The notes under the pieces: model-generated
Told to the model about the DNA's origin: nothing
Seen by the model: the letters and a program-made list of their open reading frames with translations, nothing else
Database searches by the model: none
Source of the DNA: a virus
Lineage: Duplodnaviria; Caudoviricetes
Virus record (IMG/VR): IMGVR_UViG_3300042434_000613
Location: 1 to 52,318 of that record
Reading direction: 5' to 3' (one strand)
DNA length: 52,318 bases
Position numbers and translations under genes: made by a program
Part shown: positions 3,282-47,662 of the stretch, piece by piece
How the letters are laid out: the number at the start of each line of letters is the position of its first letter
How positions within the stretch are numbered: the stretch's first letter is position 1

Positions 3282-4007
3282 ATGCCATTACCAGAATATA
3301 CTGTTCCACAATATGATTTGACTCTTCCATCAAATAAAAAGAAGATCAAATATAGACCATTCCTTGTTAAGGAAGAAAAGGTTTTAATCATTGCATTAGA
3401 ATCTAGAAATCCAAAACAAATTACTGACGCAATTAAACAAGTATTGTCTAATTGTATTCTCACTAAAGGAATTAAAATTGAAGAACTTCCTTCGTTTGAT
3501 ATTGAATACTTGTTTTTAAATATTCGTGCTAAATCTATTGGCGAGTCTATTGAACTTGTAATCACTTGTGGTGATGATGGTGAAACAGAAGTTCCAGTTA
3601 CATTATTTGTAGATGAAATTCAAGTTCAATATCTAGAGGGACATACCAATAAAATTGATATGGAAAATGGATATCATTGGCAAATGAAATATCCATCTTT
3701 AAATCAATTTATTGAAAACAACTTTGATGTTTCAGAAAAGTCTTCAGAGAATGTAGAACGATCTGTAAAACTTATTGCATCATGTATGGAAAGCGTTTAT
3801 AATGAAGAAGATTGTTGGATGGCTTCTGACTGTACTGAAAAAGAACTGATTGATTATGTTGAGAAGTTAACTCCCAAGCAATATAAAAAAATTGAACAGT
3901 TCTTTAAAACAATGCCTAAGTTGAGTCATACATTACAAGTAGTCAATCCTAACACTGGAAAAGAGAATAGTATCGTTCTGGAGGGTTTAACTGATTTTTT
4001 CGGCTAG
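3282..4007 (+). CDS. gp26: Baseplate hub subunit/assembly chaperone (T4 gp26-like)
   Basis: MPLP..P.Y.LTLPS..KIKYRPFLVKEEKVL, FDIEYLFLNIRAKSIGE, FF.TMPKL, LEGL.DFF. Confidence 0.9.
   Translation: MPLPEYTVPQYDLTLPSNKKKIKYRPFLVKEEKVLIIALESRNPKQITDAIKQVLSNCILTKGIKIEELPSFDIEYLFLNIRAKSIGESIELVITCGDDGETEVPVTLFVDEIQVQYLEGHTNKIDMENGYHWQMKYPSLNQFIENNFDVSEKSSENVERSVKLIASCMESVYNEEDCWMASDCTEKELIDYVEKLTPKQYKKIEQFFKTMPKLSHTLQVVNPNTGKENSIVLEGLTDFFG
3980..4001 (+). other. Candidate -1 programmed ribosomal frameshift site (internal SD + slippery heptamer)
   Basis: GGAGG at 3980-3984, 10-nt spacer, T TTT TTC at 3995-4001 in correct phase, one sense codon before the gp26 stop; the -1 frame is gp51. Confidence 0.7.
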
Positions 4008-4180
4008 CCCTAGCCAAAGAAGATCTTGAAACATATTTCAGGATCAACTTTGCGCTAATGCAAGTTCATAAGTATTCTCTTACTGAAATAGAAAATATGA
4101 TTCCTTGGGAAAGAGAAACCTATCTTGAACTTCTAAAACAATACATAGAAGAAAAGGAAGCAGAAAAACAAAATGGATGA
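3995..4180 (+). CDS. gp51: Baseplate hub assembly catalyst (gp51-like) reading frame
   Basis: Not in the ORF track. Frame reads FFRLALAKEDLETYFRINFALMQVHKYSLTEIENMIPWERETYLELLKQYIEEKEAEKQNG*; first ATG only at 4058. Confidence 0.85.
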   Translation, partial: FFRLALAKEDLETYFRINFALMQVHKYSLTEIENMIPWERETYLELLKQYIEEKEAEKQNG

Positions 4181-5501
4181 AGAATCCCCAAAGGCTATAG
4201 ACGCAAGTAAGTTTTTTGGTGCTGGAGAAGCAGTAATTGAAGGTGCTGCATCTCCAGCTGCAAGTGTGCAAAGAACACGAGCTGTCTATTCTGGTGGAGA
4301 TGATTTATCTAGACTTCTTAGAATTATTAAAACTGAAATAGATATAAATGATGAGGAAGATCAATTAAAAGAAGATCCAGAAAAGATAAGATTGCAATCA
4401 TTAGTTGATGGATTAACTGGTAGAGTTGATTTATTAACTTCACAACTCTCAGGATTATTTTCTCTAATACTTGGTGATATAAAAGGTAGAAATATTGAAG
4501 CAAGACAATCAGTAAAAGAAGAACAACAAAGAAGCTCTGAGATTTCTAAAGCTACTAAATTGCAAGCATTGCAAGCAACAACACAAGACATAATTAAAGC
4601 AGCTGAAGAAAGAGGGCAGCAACGTCAAGCTGAAATGGAACAAGAGCGTCAAATGGGTACGCTAATTTCGGCTTTGGGTTTTGGTGTTGGAATATCTGGA
4701 ATGATGCGGGGGAAAGATGAAGAAGATTTAAATCAATTTATTGGTGGAGAGCCTATTTCTAATCCAGTACGAGCCCAAGAAATATATCATTATTTAATTT
4801 CAAAAGGCATTAGTCATACACATGCAGTTGGAATATTAAACAACATTGAACATGAATCTGGATTTGATTCTGGTGCAATGGGAGATTATGAAAATGGAAA
4901 ACCTAATTCTTTTGGATTGTTTCAATTTAATTTGGGTGGTGGACGTGCTCAAACAATGTTTAAATCTGTAGGCACAGATTGGGCAAAAGATTGGAAAGGT
5001 CAGGTTGATTATGCACTGTCTGAGCCAGCGATGAAAACATATTTGAAAAAATCTTTTGCAACACCAGCAGATGCATCAAAGGATTTTACAATAAATTTTG
5101 AAAACCCTGCAAACAAAGAAGAAAAATCATTAGAAAGATTAAACACAATTAATACGTTTGATAAATTTAAGGATCTTGGTAATCAATCAAGCAAAATGAA
5201 AGGCAGAGGGGCAACAGGTGATCCACCACAAGTAGCACAAATATCTTCCCCAGGAACTATGATTAGTGTTCAGCAAGAAAAATTAAATGCTCAAGTTTTA
5301 GCACAAGAAACTGGTGGCAAAGCCATGTCACCACAAATAGCATTATTAAATGCTCCAACTAAATCACCAACAATTCCTGAAGGAACTGGGGGAGCACCAA
5401 CAACATCTCATGCATCTGCTCCTATTCTTCCAGCAACAAATCCTAAAGATCCTTATCCAATTGCAACAGCAATCAATCTCAATGCTGTTAAGCAAGCGTA
5501 G
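4173..5501 (+). CDS. Tail/baseplate protein with coiled coil and phage tail lysozyme domain
   Basis: AVGILNNIEHESGF, GLFQF, GQVDY, FTINFENPA resemble the Phage_lysozyme2 family; lies at the tape-measure position. Confidence 0.7.
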   Translation: MDEESPKAIDASKFFGAGEAVIEGAASPAASVQRTRAVYSGGDDLSRLLRIIKTEIDINDEEDQLKEDPEKIRLQSLVDGLTGRVDLLTSQLSGLFSLILGDIKGRNIEARQSVKEEQQRSSEISKATKLQALQATTQDIIKAAEERGQQRQAEMEQERQMGTLISALGFGVGISGMMRGKDEEDLNQFIGGEPISNPVRAQEIYHYLISKGISHTHAVGILNNIEHESGFDSGAMGDYENGKPNSFGLFQFNLGGGRAQTMFKSVGTDWAKDWKGQVDYALSEPAMKTYLKKSFATPADASKDFTINFENPANKEEKSLERLNTINTFDKFKDLGNQSSKMKGRGATGDPPQVAQISSPGTMISVQQEKLNAQVLAQETGGKAMSPQIALLNAPTKSPTIPEGTGGAPTTSHASAPILPATNPKDPYPIATAINLNAVKQA

Positions 5502-5503
5502 AT

Positions 5504-6487
5504 ATGGCAAAAATAACTGCGGAAACCATTAGTAAAGATATTGATATTGTAAAAGATAGAGTACAAGATATCACTGTCTTTATTGATAAAACAAAGTATG
5601 ATTATATTAAAACATCTAAACTAATTAAAAGTAATTTATCTTTATTAAAACAATTAAAAAAACGTTCTCATGAACTTGAAAAGGAATTGCAAAGAACAAA
5701 TCAAATACAAAAAACTGATCTTGAAAGAATAGATGAAAGGAGACAACAGGAAGAAAAACAAAAGGCAGAAATTGCTCAAGAAACAAGTTTTAATAAAGAA
5801 ATTCTCCAGACATTTTTGGGAACTGGTGTTGCCTCAATGGTTATTAGTGAAGAGATACAGGAGCAGCAAGAAACTAAACCAGACGGTTCAAATGGAAGAT
5901 TAAAACCAGATCAATTAAGAGATGTAGGTGATGGGTTTAAACTATGGGCTCCAGCAGCAGAATCTTACTTGCAAATGAAAGCTGCCGCCGCCAGAAATAA
6001 AGTATATTTTAAATTGTCAAGTGCTTATAGAACTTATGAAGAACAGGCAAAGTTAGAGGAAGAACTTGGAACATGGAGTCCAACAAATCCAGGAGCTGCA
6101 CCACCAGGAACTTCTGCACATGGTTGGGGAATTGCAATTGATATTAGTTCACCAGGAGCACAACAATGGATCCGAAGATATGGTGGTCAGTATGGTTGGT
6201 ATTCAACAGTATCAAATGAACCTTGGCATTTTGAATGGAAAGGAAGTGCAATTAATACACCTCAAAGTAAAGTTGAACCAGTAACTAAAAAAACTAATAA
6301 TCAAAACAACAATCTTGTTTCATATAATACGAAAGAAGAACCTGAATCTTTATTACTAGCATTAGTTGCTCCACCAGATAATCCTAGTGTTTCACCACCA
6401 GTAAAGCAAAATGAACCCACGACACCTCCAAATCTGTCACTAAATAAGATTACGGCTAATCCTTTCTTCATCACCCCCACTGGTTAA
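5504..6487 (+). CDS. Virion-associated M15/VanY-like zinc peptidase (peptidoglycan hydrolase)
   Basis: SAYRTYEEQ, PGTSAHGWGIAID (SxHxxGxAxD) and EPWH motifs after an N-terminal coiled coil. Confidence 0.85.
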   Translation: MAKITAETISKDIDIVKDRVQDITVFIDKTKYDYIKTSKLIKSNLSLLKQLKKRSHELEKELQRTNQIQKTDLERIDERRQQEEKQKAEIAQETSFNKEILQTFLGTGVASMVISEEIQEQQETKPDGSNGRLKPDQLRDVGDGFKLWAPAAESYLQMKAAAARNKVYFKLSSAYRTYEEQAKLEEELGTWSPTNPGAAPPGTSAHGWGIAIDISSPGAQQWIRRYGGQYGWYSTVSNEPWHFEWKGSAINTPQSKVEPVTKKTNNQNNNLVSYNTKEEPESLLLALVAPPDNPSVSPPVKQNEPTTPPNLSLNKITANPFFITPTG

Positions 6488-7767
6488 TGTCTGCAGAAAA
6501 TAGTTTTGAATATGGCAGCTTTAAAATAAAACCACTTAAATCAAGTTCTAATTTAAAGGAGATTGATTTAGGTGCAAAATCCATTGCGAGTTTTTCTTTT
6601 TATGAAAACGTATTATCGCCAGGGGTTACAGCAAGAATTAGTTTTGCTATAATTGATATTACTAAAAGTTCTGGACTTGAATTATATGGTGGAGAAGAAC
6701 TATTAGGATCAATTAATGTGCCAGATTTTCAAGGTGGAGAGATTAATTTTTCTACTCCAGGAAAAGGATTGAGAATTAGAACGATACAATCTTTAAGAGA
6801 ATCTACAAAAAGTGTTTACAATTTAGAGTTGACTAGTTATGAAACTCTAATGAATGAAATTGTTAGAGTTCCAAATCGATTTGATGGTAACGTAGGAGTC
6901 AGTGCAGAAAAAATATTCCGCCAATTAAAAAGTAATAAAACAATTGTAACCGAGAAGAGTTCTAATAATTATTCTTTTGTAGGAAATAATAAAAGACCAT
7001 TTGATTTACTTAACTTCTTATGTCCTAAAGCTGTAGCGCCTGACAAAAAATCACCAGGATATTTTTTCTTTGAAACACAAGATGGATTTGTATTTAAAAG
7101 TATTAACACACTATTAAAAGGCGGAACTAATGTTCCAATCTATACTCAGGAAGATGTTACAAATGCAAATCGTGTTGCTAACAAATACAGGATATTAAAT
7201 TCGTATATTGAAAAGAACAATGATGTATTGAATTCATTGCGTTTGGGAATGTATGCAAACAAAAGTTTGTTTTACAATCTGTATACAAATGAACCTAAGT
7301 TTGTTGACTTTCAATTAAAACAGAAGTATAATGGTGAGATTGTAACCTCATCAGGTAATCTTACAGATACATATCCACCACTGCCAGGGAACATGCAAGA
7401 TTTCCCATCTAGATATTTTGTTAGAACTTTAGATGTTGGTGCATTAGATAAGACTGGAAAGTTAAGCAAAGATTCTTTGTATCCAGACCTACCTAAATAT
7501 CAAGCAGAAGCTGTCGTAAGGTACAATCTTTTATTCTCTCAGATATTAAAAATTACTATTCCATGTAATCCTTCATTAAGAGCAGGTCAAATTATAGAGT
7601 GTAGAATACCCGAGACAGCTTCCCAAATGCAAAATAAAAATTACGAATCAATTAGTTCTGGTCGCTATATGATAACGGCATTACACCATGCGTTTTCTGG
7701 GAAGGATTGTTACACTGCGCTTGAATTGGTTAAAGATTCATATGACATTAAAACGCAATTAGCATAA
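6487..7767 (+). CDS. Baseplate hub protein (gp27-like)
   Basis: GYFFFETQDGFVFKSI, ITIPCNPSLRAGQII, SGRYMITALHH, LELVKDS; upstream of gp5. Confidence 0.72.
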   Translation: MSAENSFEYGSFKIKPLKSSSNLKEIDLGAKSIASFSFYENVLSPGVTARISFAIIDITKSSGLELYGGEELLGSINVPDFQGGEINFSTPGKGLRIRTIQSLRESTKSVYNLELTSYETLMNEIVRVPNRFDGNVGVSAEKIFRQLKSNKTIVTEKSSNNYSFVGNNKRPFDLLNFLCPKAVAPDKKSPGYFFFETQDGFVFKSINTLLKGGTNVPIYTQEDVTNANRVANKYRILNSYIEKNNDVLNSLRLGMYANKSLFYNLYTNEPKFVDFQLKQKYNGEIVTSSGNLTDTYPPLPGNMQDFPSRYFVRTLDVGALDKTGKLSKDSLYPDLPKYQAEAVVRYNLLFSQILKITIPCNPSLRAGQIIECRIPETASQMQNKNYESISSGRYMITALHHAFSGKDCYTALELVKDSYDIKTQLA

Positions 7768-38210: not shown

Positions 38211-39224
38211 ATGGCAAAACTAAATGCAAATTCTATTGTTTTAGGATCAAGAACTTTAGCGCAAAGAGATGCTCTAACACCTGAAGTTGGTGAAATTGTC
38301 TATAATTCAACAGATCAATCTATTGATCTTTATAGAAACGATGCAACTTGGGTAACTTTGAATCCAAACCGAATTACTTGGAATACCGCTGCAGGTTCAT
38401 TGGGTTCTGCATTTGAAGGACAAGCTGTTAGTGTTACGGTATCGGCAACTCTTTTAATTGGAACTATTAACTATGCAGTTCTAAGCGGAACTCTTCCAAC
38501 TGGATTGTCATTAAATGCAAATACAGGTGTTATTAGCGGAACATTATCACAGCAAGGAACAAGTACGTTTACCTTTACAATACGAGCATCTAATGCAGGT
38601 GGTGCTCCAAGAGCTGACAGAACATTTACTTATACAGTAACTACAACTACAGTTGCTTGGACTACTGCATCAGGTTCATTGGGTTCTGGTTATACTGAAC
38701 AAAGCACAACTTTTAATGCTGTTGCAACCACAACGACGGGATCTTTATCGTTTGCCGTTGTTTCTGGTTCAATTAACGGTAGCCAAACTTTATCTACCGT
38801 AAGTAACACTACAGCAAGAATTAGTGGAACAGCAGCTGGTATATCAGATTTTAATAGTGCAACTTATAGTTTTACTTTAAGAGCTACAAATCAAGCTGGA
38901 AGAACTGCAGATCGAGCATTTTCTTATCTAATTACATCTCGTAAAGTAGGATTTCGTTGTGCTACTGCCAACGAAGGTGGTGGCGTAAGCGATACTGCTC
39001 CTGGAGCATTTATTTTTATCCGAAGAGATTTTATGTCTTACGGAACACCAAATGGCTCTTGTGGAGCTTTTGGATTTGGTGGATGTAATAATGGTGCATC
39101 AAATAACTGGAATCCAACTCCTACAAAATCTTATTCCGTTGGATGTAATAACGGAACTTGGGGAGATCCTTGTGGTGGTGTAGGTAAAAGATGTTATTGT
39201 CAGATGACTTACGGGCCTTTCTAA
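38211..39224 (+). CDS. Putative tip adhesin: two Ig-like (He_PIG) repeats + SUEL-type lectin domain
   Basis: LPTGLSLNANTGVISGT..FTIRA; C-terminus SYGTPNGSCG...WGDPCGGVGK. Confidence 0.72.
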   Translation: MAKLNANSIVLGSRTLAQRDALTPEVGEIVYNSTDQSIDLYRNDATWVTLNPNRITWNTAAGSLGSAFEGQAVSVTVSATLLIGTINYAVLSGTLPTGLSLNANTGVISGTLSQQGTSTFTFTIRASNAGGAPRADRTFTYTVTTTTVAWTTASGSLGSGYTEQSTTFNAVATTTTGSLSFAVVSGSINGSQTLSTVSNTTARISGTAAGISDFNSATYSFTLRATNQAGRTADRAFSYLITSRKVGFRCATANEGGGVSDTAPGAFIFIRRDFMSYGTPNGSCGAFGFGGCNNGASNNWNPTPTKSYSVGCNNGTWGDPCGGVGKRCYCQMTYGPF

Positions 39225-39862
39225 TCAACAACAACCACTTTATCATATTCCATATCTGTAAGATCTCTTTGAATATAATTTACCCAACCAGTTATAATAT
39301 ATTTTTCCTCAGTTAAACTTGGATGACCCTTATGTGTATGAGTCCAATCTGCGGGCCAAATTATAGTTAATCCTTTTCTTGGTTTAACTTTTAATTTTTG
39401 ATAATAAAATTCTGTTTCACCACCGTCATTAACATCATTTAAATATGTCATCCAGGCTAAATGGCGTGTCGTTGTTGGGAAAAATACATCTGATCGTTCA
39501 CAATGAAATTTATGAAATGCCATTCCTGGTTTATAATATTGAATGTTTCCAGGTTGTTTAAACCCAAATGGGCACATTAATGAATATTCGTATTTTTCAA
39601 TATATTGCTTAATTGCGTTGTTTAATGCCTTACCATAATACCTATTTCTAAGTTCATCAGTTAGATGTTTATCTACTAAATCAATTGATTCTTTAATATA
39701 TGGTCTTACTGTGCCAACATTGCGAACTTCACCATTAACAACTTTAAAATCAGATACACGTCCAGGTTTGTGATGTTGTGGGTTTTTTTTAAAAAACTCA
39801 ATTAAATCATCACACAAACTTAGATCTTCAATGTAAGATTGCATTATAAAACTTTCAGACAT
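39221..39862 (-). CDS. 2OG-Fe(II) oxygenase (prolyl-hydroxylase-like)
   Basis: IQYYKPG..FH.FHCE, WMTYLNDVNDGGETEF, IWPADWTHTHKG, KYIITGW. Confidence 0.9.
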   Translation of the reverse strand: MSESFIMQSYIEDLSLCDDLIEFFKKNPQHHKPGRVSDFKVVNGEVRNVGTVRPYIKESIDLVDKHLTDELRNRYYGKALNNAIKQYIEKYEYSLMCPFGFKQPGNIQYYKPGMAFHKFHCERSDVFFPTTTRHLAWMTYLNDVNDGGETEFYYQKLKVKPRKGLTIIWPADWTHTHKGHPSLTEEKYIITGWVNYIQRDLTDMEYDKVVVVD

Positions 39863-40837: not shown

Positions 40838-40866
40838 TTGACAATCTCCTTAGAGTATGGTATATT
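40838..40866 (+). promoter_or_regulatory. Sigma70 promoter overlapping a divergent late promoter
   Basis: TTGACA-N17-TATATT; CTAAATA on the minus strand at 40863-40869. Confidence 0.75.
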
Positions 40867-40888: not shown

Positions 40889-41104
40889 ATGGACGGATTT
40901 GTGTCAACTAACGGCGAATGGGCTGTTGTACCCTTTGGTAAGGAGTACATGATTATTCACAACGGCAAACAAGATTCTGTGCATAAGACCATTGAAGAAG
41001 CAAAGAACCAAATTAAACTAGCCAAATCAAAAACTGGCACAAAAGGAAAGCGAGTCGTAAGACGCGCTTCTAAGATAAAAGGATTAGAAGAATTTATGGA
41101 ATGA
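40889..41104 (+). CDS. Hypothetical protein
   Basis: 71 aa; WAVVPFGKEYMIIHNGKQ; basic C-terminus. Confidence 0.7.
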   Translation: MDGFVSTNGEWAVVPFGKEYMIIHNGKQDSVHKTIEEAKNQIKLAKSKTGTKGKRVVRRASKIKGLEEFME

Positions 41105-41108
41105 TGCA

Positions 41109-41282
41109 ATGGATTTTACTGAACAGGAATGCGATTATTTACTTGATGCATTAAAAGGGTACATTAGAACTTGTAAAGATTGGAATTGTGGAGACGAATT
41201 TGATGTTGACACAAAACCATACTCTGCACTGGTAAGAAAAATTGCTGCTCACGTCCTTGACAAATATTATGAATCAAACTGA
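41109..41282 (+). CDS. Small hypothetical protein
   Basis: Not in track; MDFTEQECDYLLDALKGY... (57 aa). Confidence 0.6.
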   Translation: MDFTEQECDYLLDALKGYIRTCKDWNCGDEFDVDTKPYSALVRKIAAHVLDKYYESN

Positions 41283-41835
41283 TGCTCTCTTAATTGAATC
41301 AATTTTAGAGCCAATCAAACAAAAAACTGTCATGAAGATTTACTCTAATCTTCATTCAAATAATCTTAATATCATCAAAGAAGCAGTACCAGAAGTAAAC
41401 ATCTGGGCTACTTTTGAGAAAACATTTACCACCTGCCTTGGTTATGCACTACAAGAAATTGCAGAAACTTGTGGTACTAATGTCAAAAACACTGATAAGA
41501 AACAGCGTAAAGTTTTAGGTATTGATCTTCGTGTCAATGATGAATGGGAAGGTCAACTTAAAGCAAACAAAAACACACAAACTGGGACTCATAAAAGTGA
41601 TTCTATTGAAAAACTCCTTGAAACTACAACACAACATGAAGCGAAAGCTTTTTTTGCGGTTGCTTTCGGCAATTCTTTTGATTACATCGATAATGATATC
41701 CGCTACATCGGAGGAGAAGCCTTCTGGTCATGGATCGGTATTGATTACACCCAGCTACGTGATATAATTATTAAAACTGCCAGAGATACTGCCAATGAAG
41801 TCAAACATGCTTATGGACATGTTTTACGGGGATGA
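41269..41835 (+). CDS. Type II restriction-endonuclease-like PD-(D/E)XK nuclease
   Basis: EKTFTTCLG..LQEIA, GIDL, EGQLKANKNT, GGEAFW resemble Eco47II/TdeIII/PmeII-like enzymes. Confidence 0.65.
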   Translation: MNQTDALLIESILEPIKQKTVMKIYSNLHSNNLNIIKEAVPEVNIWATFEKTFTTCLGYALQEIAETCGTNVKNTDKKQRKVLGIDLRVNDEWEGQLKANKNTQTGTHKSDSIEKLLETTTQHEAKAFFAVAFGNSFDYIDNDIRYIGGEAFWSWIGIDYTQLRDIIIKTARDTANEVKHAYGHVLRG

Positions 41836-42442
41836 GGATTACACCAATCATTCTGTAAAACAGTTTGTTGTTACACCCACCACACTACAAAATGTTCGTG
41901 ATTTTATTGAGACTTGGCATTATTCTGGCAATGTGAATGGTCTGCGTGTTTCCAATGCATTTGCTCTCCTTGCCGATAATAATATTATTGGTGGTATGAT
42001 TTATGGATCCATGGGCATGGCAAATGTGTGGAAGAAATATGTTTCATCTGAAGACAAGATTGTAGAACTTCGCAGACTGTGTTGCATTGATAAAACACCA
42101 AGAAATACTGAAAGTTATTTTATTGGCAAGACTCTTCGGTGGATGAAGAAGAACACTAATTATGAAGTTGTCATTTCTTATGCAGACAGTTATCATGGAC
42201 ATTGTGGGACAATCTACAAAGCATCCAACTTTGAATATCACGGCATGACTGCTAAAGGTCGATTGATTGAATACAATGGAAAGACATTCCATGACAAATC
42301 AATTAGAACTTATCATGAAAACAAGTTTGGTGTTAAGAAATTGAAACCTTTCGCACAAAATCTTAAAGATGCTTTGGAGAGAGGTGATGCTAAGTACATA
42401 GATACACCAGGCAAACACATCTACATCTACAATCTCAAATGA
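41795..42442 (+). CDS. mom: Mom-like GNAT-fold DNA adenine modification protein
   Basis: FIETWHYS, ELRRLC..PRNTESYFIG, VISYAD..HCGTIYKASNFEYHG, KHIYIY. Exact start uncertain (ATGs at 41795-41819). Confidence 0.8.
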   Translation: MKSNMLMDMFYGDEDYTNHSVKQFVVTPTTLQNVRDFIETWHYSGNVNGLRVSNAFALLADNNIIGGMIYGSMGMANVWKKYVSSEDKIVELRRLCCIDKTPRNTESYFIGKTLRWMKKNTNYEVVISYADSYHGHCGTIYKASNFEYHGMTAKGRLIEYNGKTFHDKSIRTYHENKFGVKKLKPFAQNLKDALERGDAKYIDTPGKHIYIYNLK

Positions 42443-42603
42443 CTGATTCAATTTCCAAACGTACTGATGCAATTGATCTTATGATTCTGGATCTTCTTAC
42501 TCGTCATTCTGACATTCGCAACAGTGCTAAAAAACTTGGTTGTGAAAAAGAATTAGATAAACTTAAAGAACAACTATTAACTTACTTGCAGGAGTTACGG
42601 TAA
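42439..42603 (+). CDS. Small hypothetical protein
   Basis: Not in track; MTDSISKRTDAIDLMILD... (54 aa), coupled at both ends. Confidence 0.65.
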   Translation: MTDSISKRTDAIDLMILDLLTRHSDIRNSAKKLGCEKELDKLKEQLLTYLQELR

Positions 42604-42839
42604 TGGAAATTTATTACTATTTTTTGTTTACGATTTTTGCAGTAATTTGCATAATGATGGTCATTGATCCCAATGTAAGCATTTACATTGATTTACTTGC
42701 AAAATTCGTTAAAACTAGATTCACACGAGCATATATGCTCATCTGGATGCATCCTAAAAATCCAATTTTTAGATATAAAGTTTGGCGTAGATCGATGAAG
42801 ATTGCAGAGGAACTTAGAAAAGAATATGACAGTAAATGA
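42603..42839 (+). CDS. Hypothetical membrane protein
   Basis: N-terminal TM segment, DPNV, HPKNP. Confidence 0.7.
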   Translation: MEIYYYFLFTIFAVICIMMVIDPNVSIYIDLLAKFVKTRFTRAYMLIWMHPKNPIFRYKVWRRSMKIAEELRKEYDSK

Positions 42840-43413
42840 TTATTGTGAATACATGTTCAAAATTCCTTTACTTCATCTTTCGGTAAGAAATTGGAGTGAA
42901 AAGAAATCTATCTTGCTGGAGATGTTAAAAAAATCCAACATGGATGTCCGTGAAGATGAAGAAGTAATATCAGATTATCATACACAAAAAGGAACAGTTT
43001 ATTCTGGTCAACACAATAAACCATTAGAACATTTATTTAAAGAAGAGATAAATCTTTTTTGTAATCATTTTAGTTTTGCATCTTATAAGATTGTGATGTC
43101 CTGGTTTGAGACTGCTAAACCAGGACATTATCATGGCGTTCATAACCATGGTTCAGTAGGATATAGTGCAGTATGTTATATTGATTACAATAATGACATA
43201 CATACACCAACACAGTTTGTAGCGCCATTCAATAATTTTATAGATGGATTAACATTAGATTATGTGCCTAATGTAAAAGAGGGTTCGTTAATATTTTTTC
43301 CCTCCGTTATTTTACATTGTACTGAACCAAATAAATCAGATATTGAAAGAACAGTGGTTTCTTTTAATATTGATGTCAAGGAGAATCATGATCAACGTCC
43401 AAGATATTCATAA
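42826..43413 (+). CDS. Putative 2OG-Fe(II) oxygenase (TIGR02466-like)
   Basis: SW....G.YH.VHNHG, SAVCYI, EGSLIFFPS.ILH...N.S...RTVVSFN. Confidence 0.82.
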   Translation: MTVNDYCEYMFKIPLLHLSVRNWSEKKSILLEMLKKSNMDVREDEEVISDYHTQKGTVYSGQHNKPLEHLFKEEINLFCNHFSFASYKIVMSWFETAKPGHYHGVHNHGSVGYSAVCYIDYNNDIHTPTQFVAPFNNFIDGLTLDYVPNVKEGSLIFFPSVILHCTEPNKSDIERTVVSFNIDVKENHDQRPRYS

Positions 43414-43861
43414 ACACCAATTCTTAGGTAAAATAGATTTCCCTACATTAACATGGGATGAAGTTATCTTCAACTTTAATAAGAATGTTACTGAGGATAG
43501 AGACTATAAAATTATGAATAACTTTGGGTTTGTAACACACAATACCAGGCATAATAAAAAAGTGTGTGCTGTAGGAGAAGAGTTACAAAAACTATTTCCA
43601 ACTAATAATATATCAGCACATTTGTACACCAGTTTCCTTGAAGTTAGCGAAACATTTGGCAGGCACAATGATTATCAACATGTGTTCTTCTGGCAGTGCA
43701 TTGGCATTACTCGTTGGTCTGTGTGGGAGAATGATAAAGAACATATCTATCGTTTAATGCCTGGGGAAATGCTTTATGTTCCTGTTGGTATAGATCATGA
43801 TACTAAACCAGTCACCCCGAGAGCTGGTATATCTTTTGGGATAGAGCTTGACGATTTGTAA
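43388..43861 (+). CDS. JmjC/cupin-like oxygenase
   Basis: FGRHND..VFFWQCIG..RW, L.PGEMLYVP.G..H. Confidence 0.78.
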   Translation: MINVQDIHKHQFLGKIDFPTLTWDEVIFNFNKNVTEDRDYKIMNNFGFVTHNTRHNKKVCAVGEELQKLFPTNNISAHLYTSFLEVSETFGRHNDYQHVFFWQCIGITRWSVWENDKEHIYRLMPGEMLYVPVGIDHDTKPVTPRAGISFGIELDDL

Positions 43862-45927: not shown

Positions 45928-46136
45928 TGATTAAAAGACTTAAAAGAAAAGTATCCGCAACTCGCATGACATTTTTGTCTGTTGCCGCAGTGGTTGCCCT
46001 TGGTAATACTCTGACTGGTTGGGGAGTAGTCAGTTGGGTTCTTTATATTCCACCAATTGCATTGTCTCTTGCTGCAATTACTGGTGTGTGTCCCTTCAAG
46101 ATTATCTTTGAAAAACTAGGATTTGCAAACGACTGA
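45927..46136 (+). CDS. Two-TM membrane protein (DUF2892/YgaP-like)
   Basis: Two TM segments then TGVCPF....LG. Confidence 0.6.
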   Translation: MIKRLKRKVSATRMTFLSVAAVVALGNTLTGWGVVSWVLYIPPIALSLAAITGVCPFKIIFEKLGFAND

Positions 46137-47662
46137 TGCATATTTGTGTAATAGGGGATGGTGCTGCTGGTCTCATGGCTGCAAACTTTTTTGCATCCAG
46201 AGACTATGTTAAAAAATTAACGCACATTGGCTCATCTAAAATACCTTCTATTGGTGTAGGTGAGTCAACCACTTTACTATTTGAAGAACTGCATCGAGCC
46301 TTTGATCCTGATTTTGATTCATTTATAAGAGAATCAGATGCCTGTGTTAAAACAGGTGTCATGTATTCTAATTGGAGTAAAAATGAGTTTTTACATTATT
46401 TTAAAGTTCCAAATACTTATGAGAGATTTGGTATAAGTTTTTTAGAATATTGTAATACATTGGGCAATAAAGATCCTGATATGTTTATTCATGATCTAAT
46501 TGCTCATAAATTATATCATGATGTAAAGCAAAATAGAATACCTACACGAAAGAAAAACTCCTTTTATGGTGCTGCGTGGCATTTTGACGCAGGCAAATAT
46601 ATTTCATATCTTAAAAAGATATTAAAGACTAGATGGAATAATGTCACAGTTTTAGATGATGTTGTAGTTGATTGTAAATTTAAAGATGATGGAGTAATTG
46701 ATTCAATTCTATTAGAATCAAATCATACTGTTGAAGCTGATTACTATATTATTGCCACTGGAAAATCAAAGAAAACTGCTGACATATTTAAAATAGAATA
46801 TGAAGATTTGAGTAATGTTCTTTTAACTGATAAGGCTTTGTTTTTTCCAAAACCTTACATTAATAAAAGAGAAGAAATGCATCCATATACCATTGCTAAA
46901 ACAATGAAAAATGGATGGAGATGGATCACTCCAACTTGGTCTAGAATTGGAACAGGATATGTGTTTAGTTCTAATCATATTACTGTAGAAGAGGTGATAG
47001 AAGAATTCCGAGAAGACATTGGCGATAATACTATTACACCAAATGTTGTTGATTTCCATCCAAAATATAGTAAAAGGTCATTTAATAAAAATTATGTGAC
47101 AATGGGAATGTGTAATGGTTTCTTAGAACCTTTGGATGCACCTGGATTGTCTATCTCATGTTCTTTATCAATCATTTTAGATACAATGTTTGATGGTGGT
47201 CGATACTATCATAGCATTGTCGATAAAACATATGATTACAATCTTGATAATTTGAATGATTTTGCACAACATTTCTACAAAGGATGGGCTGCATTTATCT
47301 TAACTCAATATAAAACTTGTTATAGATCTGATACACAATTTTGGATTGATCATAAAAATGTAAAGTTTGATTATCTTGAAGATGTATTAATTGATTTAAA
47401 CTCTGACATAAATTACAGTCGTGGAATTGTTCCTGCAATGGATCATTTTGATTGTAATGATAACATTAGTGATATGCTTGATGCATTTAAAATTAATTTA
47501 ATTACAATGCTTCAAAATACAATTGCATCAAAAGATGTGCAATGGCAAACAAAAACCACGGCAATGCCATATCAATACGACGATCCATGGTATAATAGTG
47601 TGGATCATTATGAGTTCTTGCAAAACATTCGTAATTTTAATGGAGATTTAACATGGCACTAG
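46136..47662 (+). CDS. Tryptophan halogenase-like flavoprotein (PrnA family)
   Basis: GDGAAG, IGVGEST, K in ACVKTG, WHFDA, GWRWITP (WxWxIP-like), G.GYVFS, FLEPLDAPG. Confidence 0.85.
   Translation: MHICVIGDGAAGLMAANFFASRDYVKKLTHIGSSKIPSIGVGESTTLLFEELHRAFDPDFDSFIRESDACVKTGVMYSNWSKNEFLHYFKVPNTYERFGISFLEYCNTLGNKDPDMFIHDLIAHKLYHDVKQNRIPTRKKNSFYGAAWHFDAGKYISYLKKILKTRWNNVTVLDDVVVDCKFKDDGVIDSILLESNHTVEADYYIIATGKSKKTADIFKIEYEDLSNVLLTDKALFFPKPYINKREEMHPYTIAKTMKNGWRWITPTWSRIGTGYVFSSNHITVEEVIEEFREDIGDNTITPNVVDFHPKYSKRSFNKNYVTMGMCNGFLEPLDAPGLSISCSLSIILDTMFDGGRYYHSIVDKTYDYNLDNLNDFAQHFYKGWAAFILTQYKTCYRSDTQFWIDHKNVKFDYLEDVLIDLNSDINYSRGIVPAMDHFDCNDNISDMLDAFKINLITMLQNTIASKDVQWQTKTTAMPYQYDDPWYNSVDHYEFLQNIRNFNGDLTWH

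Follow-up and report, generated by a model that had tools for sequence, protein, structure and literature searches.

Can a phage build a restriction–modification (R-M) system in which no methyltransferase (MTase) takes part? A gene pair in a tailed virus (Duplodnaviria; Caudoviricetes) raises this question, as an open reading frame resembling a type II restriction endonuclease (REase) directly overlaps a gene of the Mom family. An initial reading of the DNA, made from the sequence alone, proposed that Mom modifies the phage DNA while the nuclease cuts unmodified DNA, a proposal that is supported as far as computation reaches. The window analyzed here is a stretch of 52,318 nucleotides that constitutes the entire IMG/VR record IMGVR_UViG_3300042434_000613, which covers only ~25% of a genome.

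Organization of the gene pair

Both genes lie on the forward strand at the positions given in the sequence-only reading. ORF A (41269..41835) encodes 188 residues from the ATG at 41269. ORF B (41795..42442) encodes a Mom-family GNAT protein of 215 residues. The direct overlap previously described between them spans 41 nt, counting from the first ATG of ORF B; more in-frame ATGs follow within 24 nt of the first. This dual-coding segment on the forward strand (41795..41835), comprising the 3' end of ORF A and the 5' end of ORF B, is nearly invariant in six close relatives, as judged from a DNA alignment of the six loci. Such an arrangement implies that the two genes are co-transcribed, and their translation is probably coupled.

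The proposal that both genes follow a sigma70 promoter holds only in part. The best sigma70-like match on the forward strand, TTGACA-17-TATATT at 40838..40866, is a consensus match only, agreeing at 11 of 12 positions and carrying a TG extension, and it occupies a divergent intergenic region where the co-directional gene cluster with ORFs A and B begins. However, it lies ~400 nt upstream, with two small ORFs intervening before ORF A. Promoter-like sites are not enriched in the region (11, compared with 10.2 ± 3.3 in shuffled sequences). Another promoter-like site, TTGATT-16-TATAAT (41741..41768, forward strand; 10/12, with TG), falls within ORF A, 27 nt 5' of the Mom ATG, and could permit independent expression of Mom. 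Its −10 hexamer is identical in five of six close relatives, a conservation that is ambiguous because the site is inside coding sequence.

Conserved genes of 71 aa (40889..41104, forward strand) and 78 aa (42603..42839, forward strand) border the cassette upstream and downstream, respectively. In Synechococcus phage S-SRM01, the homologue of the upstream gene adjoins the downstream flank without the pair, and one 63-aa gene separates the two in its place. By this comparison, related genomes either carry or lack the pair at one fixed locus, making it a presence/absence cassette, with the downstream gene marking the other edge of the slot. The S-SRM01 locus is also compatible with the alternative raised from the sequence alone, namely that the pair is a selfish mobile unit. 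The surrounding region is hyperplastic, a cluster made up of small genes and functionally uncharacterized 2OG-Fe(II) oxygenases. Two ORFs immediately beside the pair, of 57 aa (41109-41282) and 54 aa (42439-42603), are variable among loci. They were considered as controller proteins and rejected, having no significant Pfam match and being missing from the Synechococcus phage DSL-LC03 and other pair-bearing loci; because they are absent where the pair is kept, they are not part of the module.

ORF A resembles EcoO109I-like endonucleases

Direct searches with ORF A return little. Nothing in Pfam exceeds threshold (the best match is Endonuc_Holl, E 0.046), PF14511 (RE_EcoO109I) gives no match at E ≤ 1, NCBIfam returns nothing, and PDB sequences yield chance matches only, whether searched with ORF A itself (phmmer) or with profiles A1 and A2 (hmmsearch). 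Ten relatives carry empty database names or the label "hypothetical protein". Within the wider family, 11 of 25 members match RE_EcoO109I weakly, with a best E of 2.6e-4, and an intermediate relative, P0047, which matches the ORF A family profile at E 1.4e-22, passes the PF14511 cut-off (26.4 vs 22.5 bits). Membership of ORF A in PF14511 is transitive only, because the link runs through relatives such as P0047.

An AlphaFold2 (AF2) model of ORF A (pLDDT 88.5, pTM 0.85) finds EcoO109I structures (1wtd/1wte) at ranks 1 to 3 of a Foldseek search of the PDB, with E 4.8e-5 to 6.9e-4, probability 1.00 and query TM-scores of 0.57–0.63; among viral models (BFVD), there is no match at E ≤ 0.001. The predicted structure supports an EcoO109I-like PD-(D/E)XK core fold. 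The REase assignment rests on this predicted fold and on transitive weak matches, and the PD-(D/E)XK, REase-like call made from the sequence is borne out by the weak family matches, P0047 and the modeled fold together. No extra DNA-binding domain suited to a long target site is present in the 188-residue model.

A candidate active site, proposed from motif and secondary structure, comprises E50, D86 and Q96-x-K98. All 20 aligned sequences, from the near family and from distant relatives of as little as 20% identity, keep D86, Q96 and K98. Within the near family, E50 and E94 each reach 90% conservation or more; distant relatives have arginine at the E50 position. An NTQTGTH loop (ORF A residues 102–108) is conserved. 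The active enzyme AvaII has the same E / D / Q-x-K arrangement, and its Q-x-K is catalytically competent (PMC7337904). On these residues, the active site of ORF A looks intact. The composition of the window singles out no recognition site for the enzyme: GGWCC occurs 9 times (20.7 expected), GGNCC 23 times (24.7 expected), and palindromes with an adenine in S-A-S context, CTGCAG among them, show no depletion (29, with 23.1 expected). EcoO109I cleaves at RGGNCCY and AvaII at GGWCC (PMC7337904), and the middle A of GGACC falls within the S-A-S context targeted by Mu Mom (PMC13219725); sites of the GGNCC/GGWCC type would be a tentative first guess for ORF A.

ORF B is a member of the Mom family

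The assignment of ORF B to the Mom family is confirmed by three comparisons. It matches Pfam PF25680 at 123.2 bits (cut-off 27.1; E 1.5e-35) over profile positions 2–186 of 202, phrog_1384 at E 8e-59, and the crystal chain of Mu Mom, 8bv8, at E 8e-9, showing by sequence that it is a bona fide family member. Mu Mom transfers glycine from Gly-tRNA(Gly) to the N6 of adenines in double-stranded DNA, and the product then rearranges to N6-carbamoylmethyladenine, as established in the literature. Its target adenines lie in a short S-A-S context (PMC13219725).

Six of the seven Mu Mom active-site residues are kept in ORF B, where H42, Y43, R94, S107, D131 and Y141 correspond to Mu H58, Y59, R111, S124, D149 and Y159, and these six are invariant in 25 relatives. 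The seventh position, Mu R151, is Y133 in ORF B and varies across the whole clade. Mu R151 is reported to be essential, R151A being inactive (PMC13219725), and its loss here counts against a working module. The phmmer alignment between ORF B and 8bv8 stops at chain residue 179; the Mu protein has an HTH-like insertion at ~175–209 that is needed for activity. Judged by its retained residues, ORF B looks active. Complex prediction for the ORF A nuclease with Mom gave a score of 0.00 (mark 0.32), which is no evidence either way.

Recurrence of the pair in viral genomes

A neighborhood survey, the check that the sequence-only reading had suggested, shows the linkage to be recurrent, with Mom abutting or overlapping the nuclease in 20 of 25 evaluable viral loci. 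There are 26 nuclease loci on viral contigs; 19 have a full Mom gene abutting or overlapping, one has a Mom gene cut by the contig end, one contig ends inside the nuclease, and five have no Mom in the contig. These last five count against the module. Adjacency is kept down to 51% nuclease identity, and the flanks of the pair fall into at least six groups without mutual tblastx similarity, the pair itself still being together. The phages that carry it are ~170-kb T4-like cyanophages (Kyanoviridae relatives). The pair is also present in the complete genome of DSL-LC03, a metagenome assembly according to the paper describing that phage, which makes no mention of Mom and brings up restriction only for other genes (PMC10611076); no phage with the pair is known to be in culture.

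The association is asymmetric. Mom occurs in 128 records of a phage collection and the nuclease in 1, and the nuclease is present at 11 of 40 Mom loci. The near-family nuclease is found in viral contigs only, with no match in genomes of 185,579 prokaryote species. No fused or extended version of the nuclease, with Mom or otherwise, was found among 406 candidates, which is weak evidence; the lack of a fusion of the ORF A family counts against the module.

Methyltransferases and cellular relatives

The earlier observation that no MTase is recognizable in the window is upheld for the five DNA-MTase Pfam families searched (PF02086, PF01555, PF00145, PF05869 and PF02384), a set that would miss MTases of other families, in a window representing ~25% of a genome. 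Each family is absent from all five records examined, comprising the window, the complete related genome of DSL-LC03 and contigs of 122, 64 and 60 kb. A cognate MTase encoded elsewhere would have undercut the proposal; none of these five families provides one in the window or in DSL-LC03.

More distant relatives of the nuclease occur at 21 cellular loci, mostly in cyanobacteria. One conserved neighbor accompanies the nuclease at 20 of them, directly downstream and on the same strand at 17, and each of the five neighbors tested is a C5 DNA methylase, at E values of 1e-58 to 1e-87. Their gene neighborhoods make these relatives R-M endonucleases of the classical type, paired with an m5C MTase. 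The idea that Mom occupies the place of a cognate MTase agrees with this arrangement, in which the m5C MTase usually sits in the slot that Mom fills in the phages.

Among the viral nucleases, the Mom-less clade has a PF01555 (N4/N6) MTase ~5.6 kb away in four of its five contigs, and in the fifth the corresponding position falls off the contig. This "Mom or MTase" complementarity could be due to chance, because phage MTases are common.

Different nucleases share the slot before Mom

The slot overlapping the start of the cyanophage Mom gene is occupied by at least three kinds of nuclease gene: the EcoO109I-like family of ORF A, a REase-like lineage recognized by profile only, and an endonuclease VII/HNH type. 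The second is a very divergent REase-like ORF that lies in the same overlapping position before a nearly identical Mom (locus L039; hhalign probability 92.8%, E 4e-7), and clustering places the same lineage in the slot at L041. The third overlaps Mom at L051, and at L052 as assigned by blastp clustering; its presence there counts against the module, since homing endonucleases in T4-like phages would be expected to show this pattern. The five longer Mom proteins found comprise GIY-YIG/HTH or HTH fusions, such as P0098, in which Mom is joined to GIY-YIG and HTH domains, and one apparent chimera that has only the C-terminal half of Mom. None of the five contains this nuclease or a REase-fold domain.

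It is possible, and we propose it only tentatively, that momylation is the self-mark of a whole family of phage restriction modules, with Mom as a broad-specificity "universal antidote". Since the S-A-S context is short, one conserved Mom could protect against many nucleases. This would explain why near-identical cyanophage Moms have an overlapping slot before them in which at least three nucleases of different kinds occur, and cyanophages would then be armed with interchangeable nucleases for attacking the DNA of hosts and rival phages.

A candidate restriction–modification module and its alternatives

We favor, at odds a little better than even, the reading that ORF A and ORF B form a mobile phage R-M-like module in which phage DNA receives its mark from Mom and the nuclease attacks DNA without one. 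The two co-transcribed genes would have the layout of a type II system, with Mom replacing the methyltransferase. Mom would mark the phage genome after replication, and ORF A would act as a dimeric, site-specific PD-(D/E)XK endonuclease whose sites are blocked by that mark, so that phage DNA is spared and unmarked DNA is cut. The unmarked targets would be the host chromosome, for nucleotide scavenging and host shut-off, and any co-infecting phage whose DNA is unmarked. As R-M modules do elsewhere, the two genes behave as a mobile cassette, here within hyperplastic parts of T4-like cyanophage genomes. Two points count against this reading. Mom acts on any double-stranded DNA and would mark host DNA as well, and the cellular relatives rely on cytosine methylation for protection, whereas an enzyme protected by Mom would need an adenine in its site. 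Counting for the module are the fold and active site, the linkage, the Mom/nuclease asymmetry, the replacement in the slot, the MTase absence, the Mom residues and a prior prediction of the same kind.

Three other explanations account for parts of these data. ORF A may be a free-standing, selfish homing-type endonuclease that cuts cassette-less alleles at co-infection, with Mom as a passenger, a general anti-restriction gene not needed against ORF A. The presence/absence behavior of the cassette, with its single 63-aa gene in S-SRM01, suits such an element, as do the spread of the pair over at least six unrelated flank contexts, the endonuclease VII/HNH-type genes in the same slot and the combination of Mom with GIY-YIG and HTH domains in P0098. 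However, the cellular relatives are R-M endonucleases beside m5C MTases rather than intron- or intein-borne or free-standing homing enzymes, the small protein offers no added domain for a long target, and the pair stays constant while its flanks change, whereas a homing enzyme would be tied to its target gene. The Mom-less nuclease clade, moreover, has a different context again, and an MTase accompanies it on the contig. We consider this explanation unlikely, while noting that it and the R-M reading are not mutually exclusive, because R-M modules are themselves selfish and mobile. Somewhat less plausible again is that ORF A is an active nuclease that breaks down host DNA or serves recombination or repair, telling self from non-self independently of Mom (for example by timing, localization, an inhibitor or another DNA modification), the adjacency reflecting co-regulation only. 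Several nucleases of T4-like phages act on host DNA, among them EndoII and EndoIV of T4; the region is hyperplastic, with its small genes and oxygenases, and five loci have the nuclease without Mom. Co-regulation fits poorly with an overlapping adjacency that persists in 20 of 25 loci, through at least six flank contexts and to 51% nuclease identity, with the second, divergent REase-like ORF in the same slot at L039 (and L041 by clustering), and with the other DNA-modifying enzyme found on the Mom-less contigs.

We regard as very improbable that ORF A does not cut in vivo and instead serves as a DNA-binding partner or regulator of Mom, either as a subunit conferring specificity or recruitment or as a com-like translational coupler. 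As with com in Mu, its gene runs into the start of mom, and REase folds are sometimes reused as binding modules. The reported fusions of Mom domains to REase-fold domains (PMC7824862) would also suit a physical complex. The invariance of D86, Q96 and K98 over relatives at 20–30% identity, R-M enzymes included, nevertheless argues for retained catalysis in ORF A, and Mom works alone in Mu and is present in many phages without the ORF A gene.

Relation to known systems

The concept is not as new as the sequence-only reading assumed. Iyer, Anantharaman, Krishnan, Burroughs and Aravind (2021, Viruses 13:63; PMC7824862) predicted an R-M pair of this kind from Mom–REase fusions in jumbo phages, with momylation protecting the phage DNA and the nuclease attacking host or superinfecting-phage DNA, on computational grounds only. 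Both cases couple a Mom-family GNAT to a REase-fold endonuclease. They differ in that the present pair consists of two overlapping genes, occurs in ~170-kb T4-like cyanophages and involves a small EcoO109I-like nuclease family. The two-gene cyanophage form of nuclease plus Mom was not found in the literature searched.

Type IIP R-M systems of the EcoO109I/AvaII kind share with the pair the predicted fold of ORF A, the E / D / Q-x-K site of AvaII, and a nuclease gene followed on the same strand by the gene for modification, an order seen at 17 of the 21 cellular loci of the distant relatives. Here, however, the modification enzyme is Mom, performing tRNA-dependent adenine hypermodification, and not a SAM-dependent methyltransferase. 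ORF A is also shorter than EcoO109I (188 aa vs 272), falls below the Pfam threshold and has been found in viral contigs only.

The com-mom operon of Mu offers a second comparison, as its upstream gene overlaps the mom start and ORF B retains six of the seven Mu active-site residues. In Mu, that upstream gene encodes Com, a small translational activator and not a nuclease, and Mu Mom only evades host restriction; the R151 equivalent is not conserved in ORF B. The hydroxymethylcytosine of T4, together with EndoII and EndoIV, follows the same logic, in which the phage puts a mark on its DNA and host DNA without it is destroyed. In T4, the modification arises at the nucleotide level and takes the place of every cytosine, whereas Mom acts post-replication on double-stranded DNA, so that host DNA would be marked as well. 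The nucleases of the two systems are unrelated.

Implications

If Mom is the protective partner of the nuclease, R-M logic would not be tied to methylation. It could instead be built on a hypermodification whose chemistry, the use of glycine from a charged tRNA, was worked out only in 2023–2026. The universal-antidote reading, if true, would make this the first R-M logic to rely on an aminoacyl-type DNA modification that depends on tRNA. With its partner gene, a nuclease that N6-carbamoylmethyladenine blocks would also provide a compact two-gene tool for mapping that modification. T4-like cyanophages are abundant in lakes and oceans, and their degradation of host DNA is poorly defined. Should the module operate as proposed, these phages would gain a defined means of destroying host or competitor DNA.

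An overlapping nuclease and Mom gene pair

The record, estimated to cover about 25% of a genome, is the whole window of 52,318 bases. A T4-like myovirus module for baseplate and tail fibres is followed by a hyperplastic stretch of small genes in which 2OG-Fe(II) oxygenases and a tryptophan halogenase are also encoded. Two plus-strand ORFs reported from the sequence alone are confirmed there: ORF A (41269-41835, 188 aa), a restriction-endonuclease-like gene, and ORF B (41795-42442, 215 aa), a Mom-family gene. Their overlap is 41 nt, assuming the first ATG as the ORF B start, and is nearly invariant in six close relatives. The genes surrounding the pair include two for 2OG-Fe(II) oxygenases, one for a JmjC/cupin-like protein and one for a tryptophan-halogenase-like protein (39221-39862, minus strand; 42802-43413, 43343-43861 and 46136-47662, plus strand). 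The closest named relative at the pair region is Synechococcus phage DSL-LC03 (metagenome-assembled, Kyanoviridae), with 77% DNA identity across 68% of a 2.2-kb query.

ORF B is a Mom-family protein, scoring 123.2 bits against the Pfam Mom model (cut-off 27.1), matching phrog_1384 at E 8e-59 and aligning with the Mu Mom crystal chain 8bv8 at E 8e-9. Silva et al. 2026 (PMC13219725) show that Mu Mom takes glycine from Gly-tRNA(Gly) and attaches it to adenine N6 in dsDNA where the sequence context is S-A-S, and that the adduct rearranges to the carbamoylmethyl form; the active site is lined by H58, Y59, R111, S124, D149, R151 and Y159. With 8bv8 numbering taken as native minus nine, as deduced from the D-E-R and S124A positions in the alignment, ORF B retains six of these seven residues (H42, Y43, R94, S107, D131 and Y141), all invariant among 25 relatives. 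The R151 position is occupied by Y133 and is variable throughout the clade; because the R151A variant of Mu Mom is reported inactive (PMC13219725), this is a real caveat on the predicted activity of ORF B.

ORF A gives nothing significant in direct Pfam, NCBIfam or PDB-sequence searches. Its near family of close viral relatives is small: a search of 5.8 billion proteins gave 40 clusters at 90% identity, and one of 1.84 billion gave just 10 representatives at E <= 1e-10. Weak matches to RE_EcoO109I (11 of 25 aligned members) and RE_TdeIII (4 of 25), a relative at E 1.4e-22 (P0047) that clears the RE_EcoO109I cut-off, and the predicted fold point to a restriction-endonuclease-like protein. The AlphaFold2 model, built from the family alignment, is confident (pLDDT 88.5, pTM 0.85); EcoO109I chains take the first three places among its PDB matches (prob 1.00, TMq 0.57-0.63), ahead of the DdmD nuclease domain, McrC, Ecl18kI and BamHI, which are likewise PD-(D/E)XK nucleases. 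Conservation in the near family is at least 90% at E50, D86, E94, Q96 and K98, and D86, Q96 and K98 are invariant in relatives down to 20% identity. The EcoO109I relative AvaII is described as working with E123, D147 and Q161-x-K163 (PMC7337904), so a glutamine at the (D/E)-x-K position is no defect, and E50, D86 and Q96-x-K98 are the putative equivalent of the AvaII active site.

Linkage of the nuclease with Mom

Nuclease loci were gathered by an IMG/VR pattern scan (n=26) and searched for Mom with tblastn. A full-length Mom abuts or overlaps the nuclease 3' end in 19 of the 26; one further Mom is cut by a contig end, one contig ends inside the nuclease, and the five loci without Mom form one 45-48% identity clade. 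The sequence-only reading had proposed a survey for recurrent linkage, and recurrence is what was found: the pair is present in 20 of 25 evaluable viral loci, with the window and DSL-LC03 on top. The two genes stay adjacent down to 51% nuclease identity, and since at least six groups without mutual tblastx similarity can be told apart among their 3-kb flanks, the linkage is more than inherited synteny.

With Mom as the query, a nuclease of this family occurs in 11 of 40 loci, and among 50,697 phage records Mom is found in 128 and the nuclease in one. From the nuclease's side, the pair is an obligatory-looking adjacency. Because of these unequal counts, the nuclease seems to need the company of Mom and Mom not that of the nuclease, as would be expected if a dangerous enzyme had to travel with its antidote.

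The Mom tree contains a well-supported clade (100/99) of 18 cyanophage-type rows, 13 with the nuclease. Two more, L039 and L041, have a different upstream ORF of a size equal to the nuclease that overlaps the Mom start and lacks Pfam or PHROG matches (L039:103-669, 188 aa; L041:2415-3029, 204 aa). hhalign, applied to the L039 ORF, places it as a remote member of the nuclease superfamily (probability 92.8%, E 4e-7), and it has a canonical E-x-K; blastp groups the L041 ORF with it. That their Moms are nearly identical to those of standard-nuclease pairs points to exchange of the nuclease ahead of Mom. The three remaining rows include L051 and L042. In the S-SSM7-like loci L051 and L052, a 262-aa endonuclease VII/HNH-type gene (L051:2219-3007, phrog_1035, E 2.6e-20; L052:1237-2025) overlaps the Mom start, a different nuclease in the same slot. 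In three contigs, L042-L044, a radical SAM/SPASM protein (e.g. L043:1961-2965, 334 aa) lies directly upstream of Mom, the L042 assignment being made on its homologue in L043.

Other Mom contexts were also observed. In P0098, a 468-aa database protein, GIY-YIG and several HTH domains come after a full Mom domain in one polypeptide; this may be a fusion of Mom with a homing endonuclease, or else a gene call that reads through. By annotation only, Mom-like acetyltransferases adjoin a 'ParB-like nuclease domain' gene in Microbacterium phage records H79-H82 and an HNH endonuclease in Geobacillus phage vB_GthS_PK3.6 (H29), further cases of Mom beside a nuclease-type gene. Synechococcus phage S-SSM7 (L002, record 216772-220393) has a stand-alone Mom after a tRNA cluster, with a 'Nol-like carbamoyltransferase' gene about 1.5 kb away.

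Cellular relatives and methyltransferases

Genomes from 185,579 prokaryote species yielded no near-family member. Cellular loci with distant relatives (E 1e-9 to 1e-3, 240-270 aa) number 21: 18 are in cyanobacteria (Microcystis, Crocosphaera, Cyanothece, Spirulina and others), one in a Nitrospina MAG and two in Bacillaceae. One conserved gene of 358-466 aa adjoins the nuclease in 20 of the 21, the last contig ending there, and in 17 it comes immediately after the nuclease on the same strand. C5 cytosine DNA methylases account for all five neighbours tested (E 1e-58 to 1e-87), which argues that members of the wider superfamily are ordinary type II restriction-modification (R-M) endonucleases and that Mom in the phage family occupies the slot usually held by a methyltransferase. 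The Bacillaceae loci (L089:2331-5395 and L090) encode an m5C methyltransferase, a 192-aa distant nuclease relative and an Eco47II-family endonuclease (PF09553, E 5.6e-70) in that order, giving two REase-like genes per R-M locus.

Five DNA-methyltransferase Pfam families have no match in the window, as the sequence-only reading had held. The DSL-LC03 genome, complete at 172.8 kb, and three contigs of 60-122 kb that carry the pair gave none either. In the five Mom-less contigs (L024-L028), Mom is absent throughout, and the nuclease is extended by about 25 aa at its C-terminus and has Y in place of H108. After the nuclease come an HD-phosphohydrolase-like gene and one for a 428-aa ParB-like protein; in L026 these genes lie at 4001-4615, 4716-5369 and 5424-6710. 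A PF01555 N4/N6 methyltransferase (e.g. L096:322-1881, 519 aa, TSPPY motif) lies about 5.6 kb from the nuclease in four of these contigs; in the fifth, the position is beyond the contig end. Because orphan methyltransferases are common in phages, this apparent Mom-or-methyltransferase complementarity is supportive rather than decisive.

Mobility and expression

The genes flanking the pair (40889-41104 and 42603-42839) have homologues in Synechococcus phage S-SRM01, where a single 63-aa gene takes the place of the pair, which marks the pair as a presence/absence cassette. S-SRM01 is not named among the Mom matches listed, which cover 60 of 128 phage records and name three Synechococcus records, with six more organism names pooled.

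A sigma70 promoter had been proposed ahead of both genes. The best promoter-like site (40838-40866, 11/12 consensus match) does head the co-directional cluster from a divergent intergenic region, but such sites are no more numerous in the region than in shuffled sequence. A second site (10/12) lies inside ORF A, within conserved coding sequence, 27 nt before the Mom ATG. Methyltransferases often have their own transcript, and this candidate could provide one for Mom.

The window strongly avoids some G+C-only palindromes relative to maximal-order Markov expectation (CCGG, 0 observed vs 29.9 expected; GGCC, 14 vs 39.7; CGCG, 4 vs 17.0), as well as GGTACC (0 vs 11.2); GATC (214 vs 209.5) and CTGCAG (29 vs 23.1) show no depletion. 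The pattern resembles evasion of host restriction at sites that an adenine modification would leave unprotected.

Possible function and novelty

The elements in hand are a protein with a predicted REase fold and a conserved catalytic motif, and a Mom-family enzyme with most of its catalytic residues. We lean towards a Mom-protected R-M system, in which Mom would mark phage DNA, the mark would block ORF A, and ORF A would cut unmarked host or rival DNA. Cassette behaviour is compatible with a selfish R-M module and also with a homing element; that ORF A serves homing only is an unlikely account. Functional independence of the two neighbours, set beside their recurrent adjacency, is slightly less probable again, and a non-catalytic ORF A acting as a partner of Mom, set beside its conserved motif, is improbable.

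The Mom-protected R-M concept is already in print as a prediction: Iyer et al. (PMC7824862) predict that REase-fold domains fused to Mom in jumbo phages are the restriction component, with momylation protecting phage DNA. No description of the two-gene cyanophage form came up in the literature searches, nor any of the EcoO109I-like nuclease family of ORF A or its relationship to cyanobacterial m5C R-M enzymes. According to a 2025 paper (PMC12801897), no earlier identification of mom in a cyanophage genome existed; RefSeq annotation nonetheless names one in S-SSM7. Automatic GenBank names for the DSL-LC03 pair ('type II restriction endonuclease' and 'Mom-like DNA modification protein') show that the parts are recognisable, and the available portion of that genome's paper (PMC10611076) leaves both genes undiscussed. 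The two-gene form would represent a new version of a kind so far only predicted, well supported by comparative genomics, and the Mom-nuclease module is directly testable.
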